Shown: one piece after another, positions 13,729 through 58,057 of the stretch
How the letters are laid out: each line of letters begins with the position of its first letter
How positions within the stretch are numbered: position 1 is the first letter of the stretch
Assembly (NCBI GenBank): GCA_963660615.1
Contig: CAVKYE010000006.1
Span: 5,145-69,144, forward strand
Origin: Vescimonas coprocola
GTDB lineage: Bacteria; Bacillota_I; Bacilli_A; RF39; UBA660
Direction of reading: 5' to 3'
Length of the DNA stretch: 64,000 bases
Made by a program: the position numbers and the translations under genes
Notes under the pieces: model-generated
What the model saw: the letters and a program-made list of their open reading frames with translations, nothing else
What the model was told of the DNA's origin: nothing
The model's database searches: none

Positions 13729-13742
13729 TTCCTCCTAAAAGT

Positions 13743-13770
13743 ATTATGAAAAAAATCAAAAAAAATATAC
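13743..13770 (-). promoter_or_regulatory. Possible forespore-type (sigma-F/G-like) promoter of the spoVA operon
   Basis: Minus strand reads GTATA, 16 nt, CATAATA, just upstream of the RBS AGGAGG. It resembles the sigma-G consensus GhATr...CATxhTA. The spoVA operon is sigma-G-dependent in Bacillus. Confidence 0.35.
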
Positions 13771-13786
13771 AAAAAAAAGGCAATTT

Positions 13787-14398
13787 TTACCTTTTTACAA
13801 TCAAATCATAAACTGAATCAGCATAATCAAAATTAGCCTTATTCCAAAAATGATTAATATAATCATCACGATCATTTTTATATTGCAAATAATAAGCATG
13901 TTCCCATAAATCAATACAGAAAAGCGGAATCAAATTATAAGAAAGTGGAGTCTCCTGATTAATCATATTTACAATAAGCAAATCACCTTTATCATTACTT
14001 ACCAAAAAAGTATAACCAGAACCGATAAGATTTCTAGCTCTCTCATTAAAATCACGACGGAAATTCTCAAAATTTCCATATTGTAAATTAATTCTATTAA
14101 GTAAATTACCCCTAGGTAAACTAGAATTTTTACCCATAGAAAGAAAATACAAATCATGATTTAAAACACCACCAACATTATACAAAATATCACCACGAAG
14201 CGGAAGTGAAAACTCCGAAATATGCCTAGGTATTTCCTCCAAAGAATACCTATAATCATAATTATCCTTTTTCAAAAAATCATTAAGCCTATTCAAATAA
14301 CCACTGTGATGTTTTGTATAATGAAAAGTAATAACCTCTTCATTAATATCCGGCTCAAGCCCATCATAAGAATACGGCAAAGTCATAAGTTCATACAT
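13787..14398 (-). CDS. sodA: Fe/Mn superoxide dismutase
   Basis: LPYSYDGLEP, FHYTKHH, DLWEHAYYLQYKN. Start taken at the ATG at 14398 behind GGAGGG. Confidence 0.9.
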   Translation of the reverse strand: MYELMTLPYSYDGLEPDINEEVITFHYTKHHSGYLNRLNDFLKKDNYDYRYSLEEIPRHISEFSLPLRGDILYNVGGVLNHDLYFLSMGKNSSLPRGNLLNRINLQYGNFENFRRDFNERARNLIGSGYTFLVSNDKGDLLIVNMINQETPLSYNLIPLFCIDLWEHAYYLQYKNDRDDYINHFWNKANFDYADSVYDLIVKR

Positions 14399-14459: not shown

Positions 14460-14834
14460 CTAACATCCACTTGCTCTATACTCATAAGTATATTTCTTCC
14501 CAGTATAAGTAACAAGTACACTGCCATTCATTACACTCTTATCCTTTGGGTTTATAATATCATCTTTAGATAAAAGTCCAGATTTTTTCATAGCCTCAAC
14601 CGAAACACAATAAGAATCATTTTTAATTTTGGGCAAATAAGTTGAATTATCCAAAGAAGTCATATAATTCTTCGCCGATTTAACAATCAAAGAAACTTGC
14701 TCATCATAAGCCTTATCTTTAGAATCAGAAACAATTGAATTAATCGTTGGAACAACAATCAAAGCAATAAGTCCCAAAATAGCAATAACCATAATAAGTT
14801 CAACAAGCGTAAATGCGTTTTTCATAACCTTCAC
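14460..14834 (-). CDS. Prepilin-type N-terminal cleavage/methylation domain protein (type IV pilin / pseudopilin-like)
   Basis: MKVMKNA|FTLVELIMVIAILGLIALIVVP class III signal peptide with Glu at +5. 124 aa. Confidence 0.75.
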   Translation of the reverse strand: MKVMKNAFTLVELIMVIAILGLIALIVVPTINSIVSDSKDKAYDEQVSLIVKSAKNYMTSLDNSTYLPKIKNDSYCVSVEAMKKSGLLSKDDIINPKDKSVMNGSVLVTYTGKKYTYEYRASGC

Positions 14835-14867
14835 CTACTATAATTATAAATAATATTCTAGCATATG

Positions 14868-15506
14868 TCAATTAATATTTTGTCTTAATTTACTAAGTAC
14901 CTTTTGTTCACACCTAGAAACGCGTGCCTGAGTAAGACCCAAATTAGAAGCAACCTCAGTTTGAGTCATATCTTCATAATATCTTTCAATCATAATAGAC
15001 CTCTCAGGTTCCTCCAAACTTTCAATCTCCATCTTTAAAAATAAAAGAGTATCATAATCATAAGTTTTACCAATTATCTCATGAAGCATCATATTAGTAT
15101 CACCAACATTCTCATCAATACTCTTAAAAGATAAAGAAGAAAGTGCATCCAAAACAACATCATATGGAATTTCTAAATAACTACTAATCTCCAAAATAGA
15201 AGGCTCCCTCATCAAAATTTGCTCAAGCTTTTCCTTAACCAAAAGCACCTTATTTCTAAGTGCCCTCATATCACGGCTAATTTTAATCCTACTATCATCA
15301 CGAATAACCTTCTTCATCTCACCTAAAATATAACTATACGCATACGTCGTAAACTTAGCCTTAGTCTTATCATAATTCTTATAAGCTAAAAGCATCCCAC
15401 TCACACCAGCCTGATATAAATCATCCATATCAGCCATAGGAAAATAAGAAGCAATTTTATATATTAATTTTTCATTTTCTTTAACAAGATCCGTAAACTC
15501 TTTCAT
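14868..15506 (-). CDS. sigF: Sporulation-type group 3 sigma factor (SigF/SigG-like)
   Basis: FTTYAYSYILGEMKKVIRDDSRIKISR matches the SigF/G/B signature FSTYAVPMIIGEI..IRDD..VKVSR. Region 4 HTH is TQTEVASNLGLTQARVSRCEQK. It sits behind a SpoIIAA-like gene and near spoVA, as in Bacillus. Confidence 0.7.
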   Translation of the reverse strand: MKEFTDLVKENEKLIYKIASYFPMADMDDLYQAGVSGMLLAYKNYDKTKAKFTTYAYSYILGEMKKVIRDDSRIKISRDMRALRNKVLLVKEKLEQILMREPSILEISSYLEIPYDVVLDALSSLSFKSIDENVGDTNMMLHEIIGKTYDYDTLLFLKMEIESLEEPERSIMIERYYEDMTQTEVASNLGLTQARVSRCEQKVLSKLRQNIN

Positions 15507-15514
15507 ATCCCCTC

Positions 15515-15856
15515 CTATGAATTAATAATTTTTACCGCTGAAATCTCATCATTAACAATAAAATTTTCATCAAAAAACTTTAACATCATATTTTTTATCT
15601 TTTCATTCGCATCCACACAAATAAAACTAAAACCATCATTATTAAGACAAAAATTAAAACTATTAATCAAAGCACATCTGCCCAAAAAATCCATATATCT
15701 AACATCAGAAACATTAAATACAGCATTCTTAATTCCAGTTTTCTTGATAAAATCTAGAACCTCATAGGTAAACTGCATAACATTGTGCTCATCCAAAAAT
15801 CCACTAAGCTTAACAAACAAAATACCTCTAGCTGGACTAATATCAATATCAAGCAT
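15515..15856 (-). CDS. spoIIAA: STAS-domain anti-sigma-factor antagonist (SpoIIAA-like) lacking the phosphorylatable serine
   Basis: Aligns by eye to SpoIIAA: IVLNLEDLSFMDSSGLG against AVFNVSDVRYMDFLGRC. ATG at 15856 lies behind AAGGTGG. Confidence 0.65.
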   Translation of the reverse strand: MLDIDISPARGILFVKLSGFLDEHNVMQFTYEVLDFIKKTGIKNAVFNVSDVRYMDFLGRCALINSFNFCLNNDGFSFICVDANEKIKNMMLKFFDENFIVNDEISAVKIINS

Positions 15857-15882
15857 ATTATCACCCACCTTACTTTATCACA

Positions 15883-17109
15883 TCACAATCTCTTTTTTAA
15901 CACTTTCGACAAAATTAGAATTAATAAGATAAAAAGCAAAATAAACCCAAAATAATAAAATAAATCATTAGAACTTTCATAAGAAACCTCTTCCTTTTTT
16001 AGAGGAACAGAAGGTTTTGAAGAAACAACCGACAAATTATCCTCCTTCGCACTTGCCGAAATAACCGACGAAGTAACCAAAGGGAAATCAGACTTACTTA
16101 AAGTATCATTTGTGTCTAAAGTATCCTTTGTATCTAAAACATTATCAGAAAAATCTATAGAAACATCTGAAGATACATCATCATTCTCTTTTGAATCATC
16201 AATAATACACCTAACCCTATAAGCATAAAAATCCTTAAACAATAAATCATCTTTATAAATATAATCCATATAAGCAGAAGACAAATAATCATCATAATAC
16301 ACCTTTTTCTCCTTATAAGTCTGATAAACAGTATCACGATATTTATAAACCGGACCTGCTCTTCTAAAAGCTACAATATTAGAAATTTCAAGAGGAACCG
16401 AAGAATAAAATTCTTCCATAGTTGTAACATAATTAATAAGATGAACATCCTTACTATCCCAAAGAAGACTAAAATTTTCATCAAAAGTATAAAAATTATT
16501 AGTATATATCTCATCATTATAACCAGTTCTAAACATCATCCTGTAATCATTCACACCATCACCACTAACACGCAAAACAACATCAAGCAAACTAATATCC
16601 AAATCACATGGCAAATTAATATAAATAGATTCATCATTTTCTAAACTATCAAAACTTCCCGTAGACTTATTAGAAATATCATAATCAAGTTCCTTACCAT
16701 CATAAAGCAATTTAAACTCCTCAATTTTAAACGAATTAATCCAGAAATTTTTAATTTCAATAAAATTAATATCCTTTAGCTTCGCATATTTATACCCCCA
16801 TTCCTGAACAATTTCACGACCTTCTTTCTCTTCTGGCATATCAAAACTTAATTCTGAAAAATCCGTATATTTATATGTATCATAATCTATAAAAGGATAT
16901 TCCAAACTACTAGTTTCCGAAAAAGGACCATTTTCCCTTTCTAACTTATAATACTTATATCTCCTTTCTGTTTTAACATCAACCAAATCACTAGTTTCAA
17001 TAAACTTATCATCATATTCACTAAAATCAGAATAATCAGTATATGATAATGCTGAAACATTAAAAGACACCATCATAAGTAGAATCACTACCATAATTCT
17101 TTTAAACAT
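15883..17109 (-). CDS. Hypothetical secreted/surface protein with an N-terminal signal peptide and a C-terminal TM anchor
   Basis: Signal peptide MFKRIMVVILLMMVSFNVSA. Acidic, Tyr/Asp-rich body. C-terminal FYYFGFILLFILLILILSKVLKKRL. Preceded by conserved upstream element copy A. Confidence 0.55.
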   Translation of the reverse strand: MFKRIMVVILLMMVSFNVSALSYTDYSDFSEYDDKFIETSDLVDVKTERRYKYYKLERENGPFSETSSLEYPFIDYDTYKYTDFSELSFDMPEEKEGREIVQEWGYKYAKLKDINFIEIKNFWINSFKIEEFKLLYDGKELDYDISNKSTGSFDSLENDESIYINLPCDLDISLLDVVLRVSGDGVNDYRMMFRTGYNDEIYTNNFYTFDENFSLLWDSKDVHLINYVTTMEEFYSSVPLEISNIVAFRRAGPVYKYRDTVYQTYKEKKVYYDDYLSSAYMDYIYKDDLLFKDFYAYRVRCIIDDSKENDDVSSDVSIDFSDNVLDTKDTLDTNDTLSKSDFPLVTSSVISASAKEDNLSVVSSKPSVPLKKEEVSYESSNDLFYYFGFILLFILLILILSKVLKKRL

Positions 17110-17137
17110 ACCTTTCTCCTTTCCTGCCCCTCTATAG

Positions 17138-17187
17138 TTATGATACGATAAAAATTTCTAATTTCCTTCTTTTTAAAAGCAAAAAAA
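17138..17187 (-). repeat. Conserved upstream element, copy A (about 50 nt)
   Basis: The plus-strand sequence ttatgatacgataaaaatttctaatttccttctttttaaaagcaaaaaaa is roughly 85-90% identical, by hand alignment, to 34276-34325. It lies 28 nt upstream of the start codon at 17109. Confidence 0.7.
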
Positions 17188-17328
17188 CAAAAAAGTATTT
17201 TCCCTCTAAATTCCCCCCAAAAATAACATTTTAATCAAAATCAAACCATCAAAATATTTAATTACTAACACCTAAAGACTACACTTTATTTATTTTTATT
17301 TTTAAGATATAATTAATATGGTGATTTG

Positions 17329-24904: not shown

Positions 24905-25118
24905 ATCCTCCTAAATTCGAAAAAAATCCTATAAAATAAGGACGAGTTAACCCGCGGTACCACCTTACTTCATAGAATTATCTATGCCACTTAAATCTTT
25001 AATGCAGATATACAAACAGCTCCAAAGTACGTTCATAAAATATTACCAACCTAGTTTCCACTATCCTAGACTCACTTTTAATAATTTAGATTACTACTAC
25101 TCTTTTTCTTCGCCTTAA
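24905..25118 (-). promoter_or_regulatory. T-box leader (tRNA-Arg responsive) of argS
   Basis: The minus strand contains AAGGTGGTACCGCGGG (T-box core, plus 24953-24964). It also has a stem I start GGCGAAGAAAAAGAGTAGTA, a candidate specifier GAA-CGT-A (CGU = Arg, plus 25029-25031) and a T7 run before the RBS. A TTGACT-17-TATAAT promoter lies at 25124-25152. Confidence 0.8.
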
Positions 25119-25192
25119 GTAAAATTATAGTTAATAGTTTCACAAAAGTCAACAAAATTGTCACAAAAAATAAAAAAATAGATATAATGTAA

Positions 25193-25239: not shown

Positions 25240-25313
25240 GGGTCTATAGCCAAGTGGTAAGGCGTGGGACTGCAACTCCCTGATCGTTGGTTCAAATCCG
25301 ACTAGGCCCTCCA
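25240..25313 (+). tRNA. tRNA-Cys (GCA)
   Basis: 74 nt. Acceptor stem GGGTCTA/TAGGCCC, anticodon loop CTGCAAC, T-arm GTTGG-TTCAAAT-CCGAC, encoded CCA. Confidence 0.9.
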
Positions 25314-31916: not shown

Positions 31917-31944
31917 AAAAAAAACGAGATTTCCTCGCTTTTTT
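31917..31944 (-). terminator. Rho-independent terminator closing the exporter/peptide operon
   Basis: Minus strand: AAAAAGCGAG-gaaat-CTCGTTTTTTTT, right after the double stop TAATAA of peptide 2. Confidence 0.65.
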
Positions 31945-31945
31945 A

Positions 31946-32107
31946 TTAAAGTGGACATAATTTACCAGATGTAATTCGGCGAATAGCACTACCAATAGCC
32001 TTACCAAAATCAAGAAAAGTATCAATGCTTCTTGAAATAGCATTAACCATAGTTGTAGTAAGCCCTCCACCTCTTATTTTCAATAGTTCCTCTTTACTTA
32101 ACAGCAT
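31946..32107 (-). CDS. Double-glycine-leader peptide 2 (53 aa), bacteriocin-like. Not in the ORF track.
   Basis: Hand translation: MLLSKEELLKIRGG|GLTTTMVNAISRSIDTFLDFGKAIGSAIRRITSGKLCPL. Leader matches LSxxELxxIxGG, with a GxxxG motif (GKAIG). The ATG lies 11 nt before the stop of peptide 1. Confidence 0.6.
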   Translation of the reverse strand: MLLSKEELLKIRGGGLTTTMVNAISRSIDTFLDFGKAIGSAIRRITSGKLCPL

Positions 32108-32240
32108 TACTACACTTAATCGGATTTACATATCCATCAATTATGCCCGCAATAAAAGTTACAATAGCACCAATACCAGCTACCAAACTTATATTTATTC
32201 CCCCACCTTTTATTTCTAACAACTCTTCTTTACTTAACAT
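32094..32240 (-). CDS. Double-glycine-leader peptide 1 (48 aa), bacteriocin-like. Not in the ORF track.
   Basis: Hand translation: MLSKEELLEIKGG|GINISLVAGIGAIVTFIAGIIDGYVNPIKCSNAVK. Strong RBS AGGAGG. The ATG overlaps the exporter stop (ATGTTAA). GxxxG motif (GIIDG). Confidence 0.65.
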   Translation of the reverse strand: MLSKEELLEIKGGGINISLVAGIGAIVTFIAGIIDGYVNPIKCSNAVK

Positions 32241-34258
32241 ATTTCCTCCTTTTTAACAATTCTTCCATTATCAAACACTATATGACTATCAAACAAATCT
32301 TTATTTTCTAATCTATGAGATATGAATATCACAGTTTTGTTTTCACAATATTTCAAAAGACTTTTTAAAATACCCCTTTCAGACGCTATATCCAAAGCAC
32401 TCAAAGCCTCATCAATTATTAAAATATCAAAATCCTGTAAAGCCCTAGCCAAAGCAATCTTTTGCCTTTGACCATATGATAAGTTTAAACCATTTTCCTC
32501 AATTAAAGCATTATAGTTCAAAACACCCTCATCAATCCATGAAGTTTGACATATTTTTTTTACTTGTTTTAAATTTTTGTTTCCCTTTATTTTTAAATTA
32601 TAATTGACAGTTCCAGTGAATAAACTCTCATTTAAAGAAACATAATTTATCCTTAAATTCATACCCCTAATATCAACATTATCTACATATATTCCTCCTT
32701 TATAACCATCATAATATCCTTTTAACAACTTCATCAAAGTACTTTTTCCGCTACCACTTTTTCCCGTTATAAACACCTTTTCATTTTGCTTTATCTCTAA
32801 ATTTACATTGTCCAAAACATTTTTAACATCATCAAAACTATAACTTACATTTTTAAAAACAATATCACCATGTTTATATCCTCCCTTCTTTTTACTAAAA
32901 GAAACACTTATCAATTCCAAAACTTTTCTTATTGTAATAGAACTTTCCTTTAAAGTAGCATCCAAATCAATTATATTTCTTAAAGGATTCAAATATAATG
33001 ATATCAACAATATATATGTTATTAACGCCTCTACAGAAATAAAACCATAACGTACCAACATAACACCAACCATAAATATCAAAATATTTCCAATCATACT
33101 TATAAAATTCTTAAAAAAAGTTTGTCCATTTATCTTTTTGACCAAAATTAAAGCGTTCTTCATATACTGATTATTTGCCTCTATAATTTGATTAATCATC
33201 TTATCTTCAATATTTAAACCCTTTATAGTCTCAAACCCTCTAATACTTTCTTCAAGCTTAGAGGCAAGCAAAATCTTTGACTCCAAAGAAGCATCAAGAC
33301 ACCTTTTCAAAGGCTTATTATAAACCAAAATGATTATCACATAAAATATTACAATAACCTGAACAATAAGAAAAAGCGTTTTATTCAAAAGAAATAAAAT
33401 AATTCCCGTTATCAAAGATAAAGGAAAATCTATAAGTACAGTTAAAAGGACCTTACTAACCATTTCTTTAACAATCTTCAAATCGTCAACCTTACTTAAA
33501 ATTTCACCGGAAGTATGGTTATGGTAGTAATTGTAAGGAAGTAAAATTATCTTTTTAACACTATCCAAAGTAATACTAGCTTCTATCTTAAAAGAAAGAA
33601 AAAGCGCCATTTTACCTCTTATATAATCAAAAATAATACTTATAAAATAACTAAACGCGAAAATAAAACACAAAAATATCTCTTTATACTTATTAGTTTT
33701 TAAATTTTCCAAAAGACTCTGGAAGAAAAAAGAACTAAAAATCGTCGACAAAGTTATAACACACGATAAAACAAATAATTTTAATATAATTTTTTTATGG
33801 GGTTTTATTATATTTTTTAAAACTTTTAGGGAGACCTTTTCATACCTTGGAATCTGTTTTACCGGATGCATAACAATCTTTATATTTGTCCATATTTTCA
33901 AAAACTCCTGCCTATCTTGCTTTTTAATTCCACAAGCTGGATCAGCCACTAAGACATACCTTTCAGTAACTTCATAAACAACTAGAAAATGATTGTAGGA
34001 GTTTATTTGAACGTTTGCTATAAAAGGCACACGTGTATTTTCTAATTGCTTTACTCTAAAACCCTTAGCCTCAAATCCAATCTGTTTTAAAGCCTCTATA
34101 ATATGATAAGCCGTAGTTCCATTTTTAGTTGTTTTAAGCATCTCACTTATTTTTTCCAAAGGAATATAGCCCTTATAATACTTTATTATCATACTCAAAG
34201 AAGCCGCACCACAGTCTTTTAAATTTTCTTGTCTCGTAAAAGGATAACGTTTAAGCAT
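32234..34258 (-). CDS. Peptidase C39 domain-containing ABC transporter (double-glycine peptide exporter/maturation protease)
   Basis: The N-terminal C39 catalytic set is present: QENLKDCGAASL (Gln/Cys), NHFLVV (His), ADP (Asp). Six-TM domain. Walker A GKSGSGKST, signature LSYGQRQ, Walker B LIIDEALS. Confidence 0.9.
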   Translation of the reverse strand: MLKRYPFTRQENLKDCGAASLSMIIKYYKGYIPLEKISEMLKTTKNGTTAYHIIEALKQIGFEAKGFRVKQLENTRVPFIANVQINSYNHFLVVYEVTERYVLVADPACGIKKQDRQEFLKIWTNIKIVMHPVKQIPRYEKVSLKVLKNIIKPHKKIILKLFVLSCVITLSTIFSSFFFQSLLENLKTNKYKEIFLCFIFAFSYFISIIFDYIRGKMALFLSFKIEASITLDSVKKIILLPYNYYHNHTSGEILSKVDDLKIVKEMVSKVLLTVLIDFPLSLITGIILFLLNKTLFLIVQVIVIFYVIIILVYNKPLKRCLDASLESKILLASKLEESIRGFETIKGLNIEDKMINQIIEANNQYMKNALILVKKINGQTFFKNFISMIGNILIFMVGVMLVRYGFISVEALITYILLISLYLNPLRNIIDLDATLKESSITIRKVLELISVSFSKKKGGYKHGDIVFKNVSYSFDDVKNVLDNVNLEIKQNEKVFITGKSGSGKSTLMKLLKGYYDGYKGGIYVDNVDIRGMNLRINYVSLNESLFTGTVNYNLKIKGNKNLKQVKKICQTSWIDEGVLNYNALIEENGLNLSYGQRQKIALARALQDFDILIIDEALSALDIASERGILKSLLKYCENKTVIFISHRLENKDLFDSHIVFDNGRIVKKEEIC

Positions 34259-34275
34259 ATCTTACCTCCTCATTA

Positions 34276-34325
34276 TTATGGTACGATAAAACTTTTAAAT
34301 TTCCTTTTTTTAAAGCAAAAAAAAA
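34276..34325 (-). repeat. Conserved upstream element, copy B (about 50 nt)
   Basis: The plus-strand sequence ttatggtacgataaaacttttaaatttcctttttttaaagcaaaaaaaaa fills the whole rsmD-exporter intergenic gap and lies 17 nt from the exporter ATG. It contains the near-palindrome TTATgGTACgATAA. Confidence 0.7.
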
Positions 34326-34847
34326 TCATTTTTTAAAGATTTTTATAAATTTATTTCCATAACGTTTCTCTTTTACAAGTTCATAAATAGTCTCAGGCTC
34401 CTCACCTTCATATTCACAAACAATTATACCACCATCATTTAAAATATCAATCTCCTCAATTTTTTTAATCGCCTTATTAAGCACCTTCGCCTTATAAGGC
34501 GGATCCAAAAAAATTATATCAAACCTAGAAACAGTTTCCTTCAAATACCTTTTATAATCCATATTAATAATCGTAATATTCTCTTTAACATTTTCCACAT
34601 TTCTATTTAAAACTCTTATTACCTTTGGATTATTATCTACAAAAGTACACGCCTTAGCCCCCATAGATAAAGCCTCAAGCCCTAAAGAACCACTACCAGC
34701 AAATAAATCCAAACACTCACTTCCTTCTATCCTATTTTGAATAATTGCAAAAACAGATTCCCTAACCCTATCCATAGTTGGCCTCGTCCCGTCAATATCA
34801 AATCCCTCTAATTTCTTTCCTTTATATTTTCCGCTTATAATCCTCAT
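34326..34847 (-). CDS. rsmD: 16S rRNA (guanine966-N2)-methyltransferase RsmD
   Basis: MRIISGKYKGKKL...RPTMDRVRESVF...LDLFAGSGSLGLEALS...DPPY. Start taken at 34847. Confidence 0.85.
   Translation of the reverse strand: MRIISGKYKGKKLEGFDIDGTRPTMDRVRESVFAIIQNRIEGSECLDLFAGSGSLGLEALSMGAKACTFVDNNPKVIRVLNRNVENVKENITIINMDYKRYLKETVSRFDIIFLDPPYKAKVLNKAIKKIEEIDILNDGGIIVCEYEGEEPETIYELVKEKRYGNKFIKIFKK

Positions 34848-57983: not shown

Positions 57984-58057
<74 letters not shown>

Follow-up and report, generated by a model that had tools for sequence, protein, structure and literature searches.

A repeated 50-nt intergenic element that resembles a SigH promoter precedes peptide-export, DNA-processing and sporulation-entry genes in a metagenome-only bacterium

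A 50-nt intergenic element that occurs twice in a 64,000-nt stretch of DNA (the window; contig C6, positions 5145-69144) is, in our reading, a complete promoter served by an alternative sigma factor of RNA polymerase, most likely a SigH-like factor of 204 aa encoded on contig C1 next to rlmB. We put the probability of this reading at about 0.7. On sequence grounds, it is very probable that the element is a promoter of the alternative-sigma type, and probable that the sigma factor reading it is the SigH-like protein of this genome, an assignment that we infer from motif identity, synteny and regulon content. The element is of a known kind, with a lineage-specific variant of the -10 box and an unusual regulon. 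The organism is known from metagenome bins only, and its genome (1.26 Mb in 33 contigs, 30% G+C) is estimated to be 95% complete.

The two copies in the window

Both 50-mers were found where a first-pass annotation of this DNA had placed them, copy B at 34276-34325 and copy A at 17138-17187, each on the minus strand and in the same orientation as its downstream gene. The coding-strand (minus-strand) sequence is TTTTTTTTTGCTTTAAAAAAAGGAAATTTAAAAGTTTTATCGTACCATAA for copy B and TTTTTTTGCTTTTAAAAAGAAGGAAATTAGAAATTTTTATCGTATCATAA for copy A. Their identity, estimated earlier at roughly 85-90% by hand, was borne out by a global alignment with 44 identical columns out of 52 and a score of 33; intergenic 50-mers of this genome in equivalent positions, paired at random, gave a mean score of -4.9 (sd 6.0). 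The distances to the minus-strand start codons were also confirmed, namely 17 nt for copy B (ATG 34258-34256) and 28 nt for copy A (ATG 17109-17107). Copy B had been described as the whole rsmD-exporter intergenic region; this spacer in fact measures 67 nt (34259-34325), and the 50-mer makes up its upstream three quarters, between the rsmD stop codon (34326-34328) and the 5' UTR of the exporter gene.

Copy B can be read as a complete promoter module. Directly upstream of its -35 element lies a T9-GCTTT-A7 tract (34305-34325, minus strand), a T-tract followed by an A-tract, which may be read as UP-element-like by the E. coli consensus; a T/A tract is also present upstream of the -35 at the relatives' orthologous exporter site. 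No convincing -35 had been recognized in the first-pass annotation, a view that does not hold, because a -35 of the SigH type RnAGGAwww (consensus from PMC4754846) is present as AAAGGAAAT at 34299-34307. It is followed on the same strand by an 11-nt spacer, TTAAAAGTTTT (34288-34298), and by the -10 element ATCGTAC (34281-34287), which is of the form RnCGTAY as compared with RnCGAAT in Listeria and Bacillus. The predicted start region, with TAATG (34265-34275, minus strand) and G 34271 as the likeliest +1, runs directly into the Shine-Dalgarno sequence GAGGAGG, so that a very short 5' UTR of about 13-17 nt is predicted. The start region was placed by means of the ...TATAG/...AATG block, which is conserved across all copies. 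Copy A contains the same module on the minus strand, with the -35 element GAAGGAAAT (17161-17169), an 11-nt spacer (17150-17160), the -10 element ATCGTAT (17143-17149) and a predicted +1 at G 17132.

No Rfam family matches copy A or copy B, and RNA folding of the two copy regions was not better than that of shuffled sequences (z -1.35 and -1.7); a structured RNA leader at the element is therefore unlikely. Elsewhere in the window, a T-box leader was detected at 24935-25119 (minus strand; 99.6 bits), as well as two tRNA genes at 25240-25310 and 57984-58054 (both plus strand).

A motif family at gene starts

The element had been considered to resemble no other intergenic region of the window. 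This stands for the window, where a weight matrix scores no further site, but not for the genome, where a fuzzy search followed by the weight matrix recovered about 20 sites with scores of 21-61 bits, as against at most 7.8 in two shuffles of the whole genome. The genome consensus of these copies is AAAAAAGGAAAT-N11-RTCGTAY-CATAWnTATAG (the -35 being also given as AAAGGAAAT), and the -35 is either AAAGGAAAT or GAAGGAAAT in all of the approximately 20 copies. Within the species, the copies are alike beyond the -35 and -10 elements, with a spacer of AAACTTTTAT or AAAAAACAT and a downstream CATAAnTATAG, and many of them sit at contig ends.

The strict pattern AGGAWWW-N12-14-CGTAY had 24 matches in the genome, 19 of them intergenic, and all 19 were co-oriented with the next gene or pointed out of a contig end. 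Where the gene is present on the contig, the strict intergenic matches lie 18-46 nt before its start codon, the degenerate recG-type sites being the exception. Such a scan had been proposed earlier as a way of recognizing a common dispersed repeat; the sequence is indeed dispersed, yet it is strictly placed at gene starts. The Bacillus-type pattern, which ends in GAAT instead of CGTAY, had 53 matches in the genome, almost all inside genes, and these matches are noise. In upstream regions, the canonical SigA promoter TTGACA-N16-18-TATAAT was found 22 times in the forward and 8 times in the reverse direction, and TGnTATAAT 138 and 38 times, respectively. Because canonical SigA promoters are common, the element represents a minority promoter class in this genome.

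Conservation in related genomes

With one or two exceptions, the exporter promoters listed for 19 congeners have retained AGGAwwT and (C)GTAT at an unchanged distance. These promoters consist of AAAAGGAAAT, a spacer of differing sequence, (C)GTAT(G/A)(T/A)TAAT and then a ribosome-binding site. Since orthologous promoters have both blocks at the same distance but differ in the spacer, the two blocks and their spacing are, as judged from these comparisons, under selection, and the spacer sequence and the near-palindrome within the element are not. A species-specific repeat was at one point suggested by the 30-nt pattern AAGGAAA-N12-WTCGTAYNATA, which had 0 matches in 30 relatives; this idea was abandoned, because the pattern is over-specific, and both looser two-block patterns and the orthologous promoters are conserved.

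In two closed congener genomes (G009 and G012), the pattern AAGGAAW-N12-14-CGTAY had 14 and 23 matches, as compared with 3 in a reversed control, nearly all with the same 13-nt gap. The motif precedes orthologues of the UvrD-like helicase, the thioester-domain (TED) protein, the ABC ATPase and dnaG in both genomes, and those of comEA and recG in G012. In both genomes it also stands before many Rpn-like nuclease genes. The same promoter type was observed before YhcG-type PDDEXK nuclease genes, an ORF6N-domain gene and a 139-aa gene (loci L065, L068, L076 and L163 of G012 and L077 of G009), the 139-aa gene downstream of the motif being common to both closed congeners; the nuclease bias of the regulon is therefore genus-wide. 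The operon encoding a secreted protein, a STAS-domain protein and a SigF-like factor carries the motif in three congeners that share this gene order; at the STAS/SigF-like operon of G009 and G012, from which the secreted-protein gene is absent, no motif was seen.

More distant uncultured Bacilli/'Tenericutes' bins also showed a motif-type promoter, in front of the presumed comEA (the ORF 5' of comEC), in 23 of the 77 bins that had enough sequence upstream of comEC. The spacing is identical in 22 of these 23 promoters, and the -10 is GTAT in 15 and GAAT in 8 of them.

Genes downstream of the motif

The motif-bearing set comprises about 11 single-copy operons and a family of at least nine nuclease genes. 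In the first-pass annotation, the exporter operon and the STAS/sigma operon were suggested to be co-regulated by a factor that was not named. The shared cis-regulatory signal does imply co-regulation of the two, but a regulon of two members is too small, and the factor is most likely the SigH-like sigma on C1. In addition to the C39-ABC exporter operon (copy B) and the secreted-protein/STAS/SigF-like operon (copy A), the motif precedes comEA-comEC, dnaG-sigA and radC-mreC-mreD, as well as genes for a TED surface protein (with a sortase and an amidase), an ABC ATPase (with an FtsX-type permease, upstream of murG-murB-ftsA-ftsZ), an M23 peptidase, a UvrD-like helicase, an MvaI/BcnI-type restriction endonuclease and an M10 metalloprotease. 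The recG gene is preceded by a motif with a degenerate -10.

The operon downstream of copy B encodes, on the minus strand, an exporter of 674 aa with peptidase C39, ABC-membrane and ABC-ATPase domains (32234-34258), a 48-aa peptide (32094-32240) and a 53-aa peptide (31946-32107), and is closed by a terminator-like hairpin with a T-run (31918-31944). Both peptides have double-glycine leaders (MLSKEELLEIKGG and MLLSKEELLKIRGG, respectively, each followed by G at the predicted cleavage point) and weak matches to Bacteriocin_IIc (E 0.028 and 0.13, respectively). They are likely to be the substrates of the exporter, either as a two-peptide bacteriocin-like pair or as signalling peptides.

The operon downstream of copy A, also on the minus strand, begins with a 408-aa secreted protein with a signal peptide (15883-17109), for which no Pfam or NCBIfam match was obtained, and continues with a SpoIIAA-like STAS-domain anti-sigma-factor antagonist (15515-15868) and a divergent sigma factor of the SigF/SigB/SigG family (212 aa; 14868-15506) that scores below the equivalog cut-offs. 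The STAS gene lies directly 5' of the sigma gene (14868-15868, minus strand), with no gene for a SpoIIAB-type anti-sigma kinase between them; the sigma factor is short, its score is far under the SigF equivalog cut-off, and the two-gene arrangement is also present in five congeners. After the sigma gene comes a pilin-like gene (N_methyl, ComGC/GspG-like; 14460-14834) with a near-perfect SigA promoter of its own, TTGACA-N17-TATAAT (14835-14880, minus strand), and is unlikely to be expressed solely from the copy A transcript. A canonical forespore-type promoter, GTATA-N17-CATAATA, was observed before spoVAC-spoVAD-spoVAE (13729-13790, minus strand).

About 100 nt are near-identical between positions 17095-17200 of the window and the promoter of the TED gene on another contig of the same genome (G000 C5:75660-75800), and the 23-nt 5' UTR as well as the first five codons (MFKRI) are identical at copy A and at the TED gene. 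The 408-aa gene and the TED gene were considered as paralogues on account of this match, and the idea was rejected because BLASTP revealed no homology (E 0.13). A shared promoter, UTR and first codons in spite of non-homologous proteins hint that a promoter/5'-UTR/start cassette was copied, gene-converted or homogenised between unrelated genes.

At least nine contig ends that carry the motif run into one multi-copy gene family, identified by its C-terminus and by full-length copies in a closed relative as a PD-(D/E)XK 'transposase' of the PDDEXK_2 (Rpn/YhgA-like) type. Heads of these genes lie at the G000 contig ends C3_R, C6_L, C8_R, C12_R, C18_R, C27_L, C28_R, C30_R and C31_R, and tails at C3_L, C7_L, C12_L, C19_R, C22_L, C23_L, C30_L and C2_R; the copies (at least nine) break the assembly. 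Upstream of the heads there is a further conserved module, about 100 nt long, which contains the 7-bp inverted repeat GTATTTT...AAAATAC, and an attenuator-like hairpin with a T-run (AGAGGAtgagaagTCCTCTTTT) lies between the promoter and the ribosome-binding site.

DprA (PF02481) was not found in the 95%-complete genome, despite the presence of comEA-comEC, radC and three T2SSE-type ATPases, and no motif occurs within 200 nt upstream of the three gene or operon heads of these pilus-type ATPases. The regulon is therefore not a complete competence regulon. It looks like a DNA-centred stationary-phase programme, in which DNA may be taken up for a purpose other than classical transformation.

Match to SigH promoters and the sigma factors of the genome

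The SigH consensus of Listeria and Bacillus is (A/G)(A/C)AGG(A/G)WWW-N11-12-(A/G)(A/G)(A/C)GAA(A/T), the Listeria comGA, comEA and coiA promoters are of the form AAAGGAwTT-N11-GGCGAAT, and comEA and comG are SigH-dependent in Listeria (PMC4754846). SigH-dependent competence genes were also reported in L. sakei (PMC3364868), and SigH promoters of C. difficile include those of spoIIAA, spo0A and sigA2, with minC, ftsZ and mreB also listed (PMC7438776). The -35 RnAGGAwww is present in the approximately 20 copies described above and at the relatives' orthologous sites, and the 11 nt between the 9-nt -35 and the 7-nt -10 of both window copies fall within the 11-12 nt of SigH promoters. Copy B (AAAGGAAAT-N11-ATCGTAC) and copy A (GAAGGAAAT-N11-ATCGTAT) depart from the SigH consensus solely in a T that replaces the first A of GAAT, the -10 being RTCGTAY in place of RnnGAAT. 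The SpoIIAA-like/SigF-like operon, dnaG-sigA and comEA-comEC overlap with known SigH regulons (PMC7438776, PMC4754846).

Eight sigma-70-family proteins are encoded in the genome: SigA (downstream of dnaG), SigG, SigK, SigE (after SpoIIGA), the SigF-like factor of the window, an ECF factor, an orphan of 176 aa and the SigH-like factor. The SigH-like protein of 204 aa is encoded on contig C1 (G000 C1:16221-16835, minus strand); its best NCBIfam matches are SigH models, with 122 bits and hence under the 208-bit cut-off. Its gene lies immediately downstream of rlmB, which we take to be the Bacillus arrangement, and has orthologues in 18 related genomes. A comparison of SigH residues with the GTAT or GAAT form of the -10 across 19 genomes yielded no discriminating alignment column, so that the sigma assignment draws no support from covariation. 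The orphan (G000 C1:129918-130127; L006:1201-1731, minus strand) has weak SigK and SigE models as its best matches and may be an accessory or mobile-element sigma.

Alternative explanations

A different alternative sigma factor could read the element, either the SigF/B/G-family factor of the copy A operon, by positive autoregulation, or the orphan 176-aa sigma on C1, and we consider this unlikely. Operons of alternative sigma factors are often autoregulated, copy A is followed by the very operon that encodes the SigF-like sigma and a STAS antagonist, and the -10 of SigB-type promoters, GGGTAT, contains GTAT. However, the -35 AAAGGAAAT matches that of SigH exactly, and to our knowledge no SigF, SigG or SigB -35 matches it. 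The canonical forespore-type promoter stands elsewhere in the window, before spoVAC, and the upstream region of spoIIR, a hallmark SigF target, shows neither the AGGA...CGTAY motif nor a clear SigF consensus. As for the orphan, five motif-bearing congeners lack an orthologue of it. The suggestion that CATAATA at the end of copy B is a forespore sigma -10 has to be given up as well: copy A has CATAACT and others CATATAT, so that CATnnTA occurs in some copies only, and the GnATR -35 that would lie 17-18 nt from such a -10 is missing.

The promoter might instead belong to SigA, with a poor -35 compensated by an activator at AAGGAAAT (a class II site) and with TAYCAT or TATGTT as the -10, a reading to which we give a low probability. 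TACCAT, TATCAT, TATGAT, TATGTT and TATAAT, all with A2 and T6, are suitably placed and would be tolerable SigA -10 hexamers, and a promoter scan returned a weak sigma-70-like match at 34299-34272. Yet the invariant G 5' of TAT, usually CG, is a feature of the SigH type and not the extended -10 (TGn) of SigA, the GAAT seen before comEA in 8 relatives does not qualify as a SigA -10, and the fixed 11-nt spacing to AGGA is the geometry of SigH. It is very improbable that the near-palindrome TTATGGTACGATAA is the operator of a dimeric repressor or activator, as had been proposed. The near-palindrome TTATgGTACgATAA exists in copy B, in which 12 of 14 positions are palindromic, but copy A has it in a weaker form (TTATGATACGATAA) and the orthologous promoters of 19 congeners lack it; they read CGTATGTTAAT, AGTATGATAAT or AGTATATTAAT without dyad symmetry; the symmetry is limited to this species. 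The congeners keep AGGAAAT and (C)GTAT at fixed spacing, and conservation rests on these two asymmetric blocks 11 nt apart. Equally hard to credit is a dispersed repeat or miniature mobile element without a regulatory role, even though it would account for some 20 copies, their similarity past the -35 and -10 (spacer AAACTTTTAT, CATAAnTATAG), the many copies at contig ends and the identical 5' UTR and first five codons of two unrelated genes. Every intergenic copy other than the degenerate recG-type sites aims at a gene start 18-46 nt away, 19 of the 24 strict matches are both intergenic and co-oriented, the orthologous positions of other species carry both blocks with different spacers, and neither terminal inverted repeats nor target duplications were found.

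Proposed mechanism and implications

On the reading that we prefer, a promoter for the SigH-like factor, the element would be laid out on the coding strand as an UP-like T-tract/A-tract, the -35 AAAGGAAAT, an 11-nt spacer, the -10 RTCGTAY and CATAWnTATAG. Transcription would probably start at the final G or A, and the mRNA would then begin a few bases before the Shine-Dalgarno sequence. By analogy with known SigH factors, the sigma may be active at the transition to stationary phase. It would jointly switch on the C39-ABC exporter with the two double-glycine peptides and the secreted-protein/SpoIIAA-like/SigF-like operon, together with comEA-comEC, dnaG-sigA, radC-mreCD, the UvrD-like and RecG helicases, wall hydrolases, the restriction endonuclease and at least nine PD-(D/E)XK (Rpn-like) nuclease genes.

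We tentatively suggest, as a possibility that is rather less likely to be right than wrong, that in this uncultured lineage of gut Bacilli with small genomes SigH has drifted towards GTAY as its -10 and controls a compact programme of killing and DNA scavenging that is coupled to sporulation entry. Such a programme would consist of the bacteriocin-like pair and its exporter, wall hydrolases, the ComEA/ComEC channel, helicases, the restriction enzyme, the expanded family of Rpn-like PD-(D/E)XK nucleases and the first sporulation operon, apparently without DprA and without a pilus ATPase in the regulon, and the promoter cassette may have been copied between genes.

If the SigH assignment is correct, what appeared as an unexplained repeat can be read as a regulatory code of a metagenome-only bacterium, in which one motif predicts a co-expressed set spanning peptide export, DNA uptake and processing, nucleases and sporulation entry. 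The motif would also provide a 44-nt reporter for the SigH-like factor. The one-base drift in the -10 preference of a sigma factor, with GTAT and GAAT both occurring at orthologous promoters of related genomes, would make the lineage a natural system for the study of sigma/promoter co-evolution. In annotation, the motif can serve as a marker of genuine gene starts and of the heads of operons in this lineage.

Comparison with known systems

The forespore promoters of B. subtilis SigG and SigF (GnATR-N17-18-CATnnTA) are similar to the element only in that CATAATA happens to occur in copy B. In contrast to them, the element has no GnATR -35, CATnnTA is not conserved among its copies, and the true example in this DNA is the promoter before spoVAC.

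A closer parallel is the cin-box (com-box) of streptococcal ComX (SigX), TACGAATA, which is likewise the stereotyped promoter of a SigH-family factor, drives comEA/comEC and radC and shares the core CG(A/T)AT. In pneumococci, ComX reportedly also drives a two-peptide bacteriocin and murein hydrolases, with cibAB and cbpD among the late genes. Cin-box promoters have a T-rich tract and no -35, whereas the element has TATCGTAY and a strong AGGA -35. The regulon also differs from that of ComX, as the pilus ATPase gene is without the promoter, DprA was not found and sporulation genes are present.

The SigH promoters of Bacillus, Listeria and Clostridioides are the nearest relatives, with an identical -35 AAAGGAAAT and an 11-nt spacer, and the CG that precedes the -10 core is common to the element and to the Listeria GGCGAAT. 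Targets shared with known SigH regulons are the spoIIAA operon, a sigA operon, comEA, wall hydrolases and cell-division/mre genes. In contrast to the known SigH promoters, the -10 core is GTAY in this species and in most close relatives, some relatives having GAAT at comEA, and conservation continues through CATAWnTATAG to the presumed start. What sets the regulon apart from known SigH regulons is the presence of a C39 exporter with double-glycine peptides and of a large family of Rpn-like nucleases.
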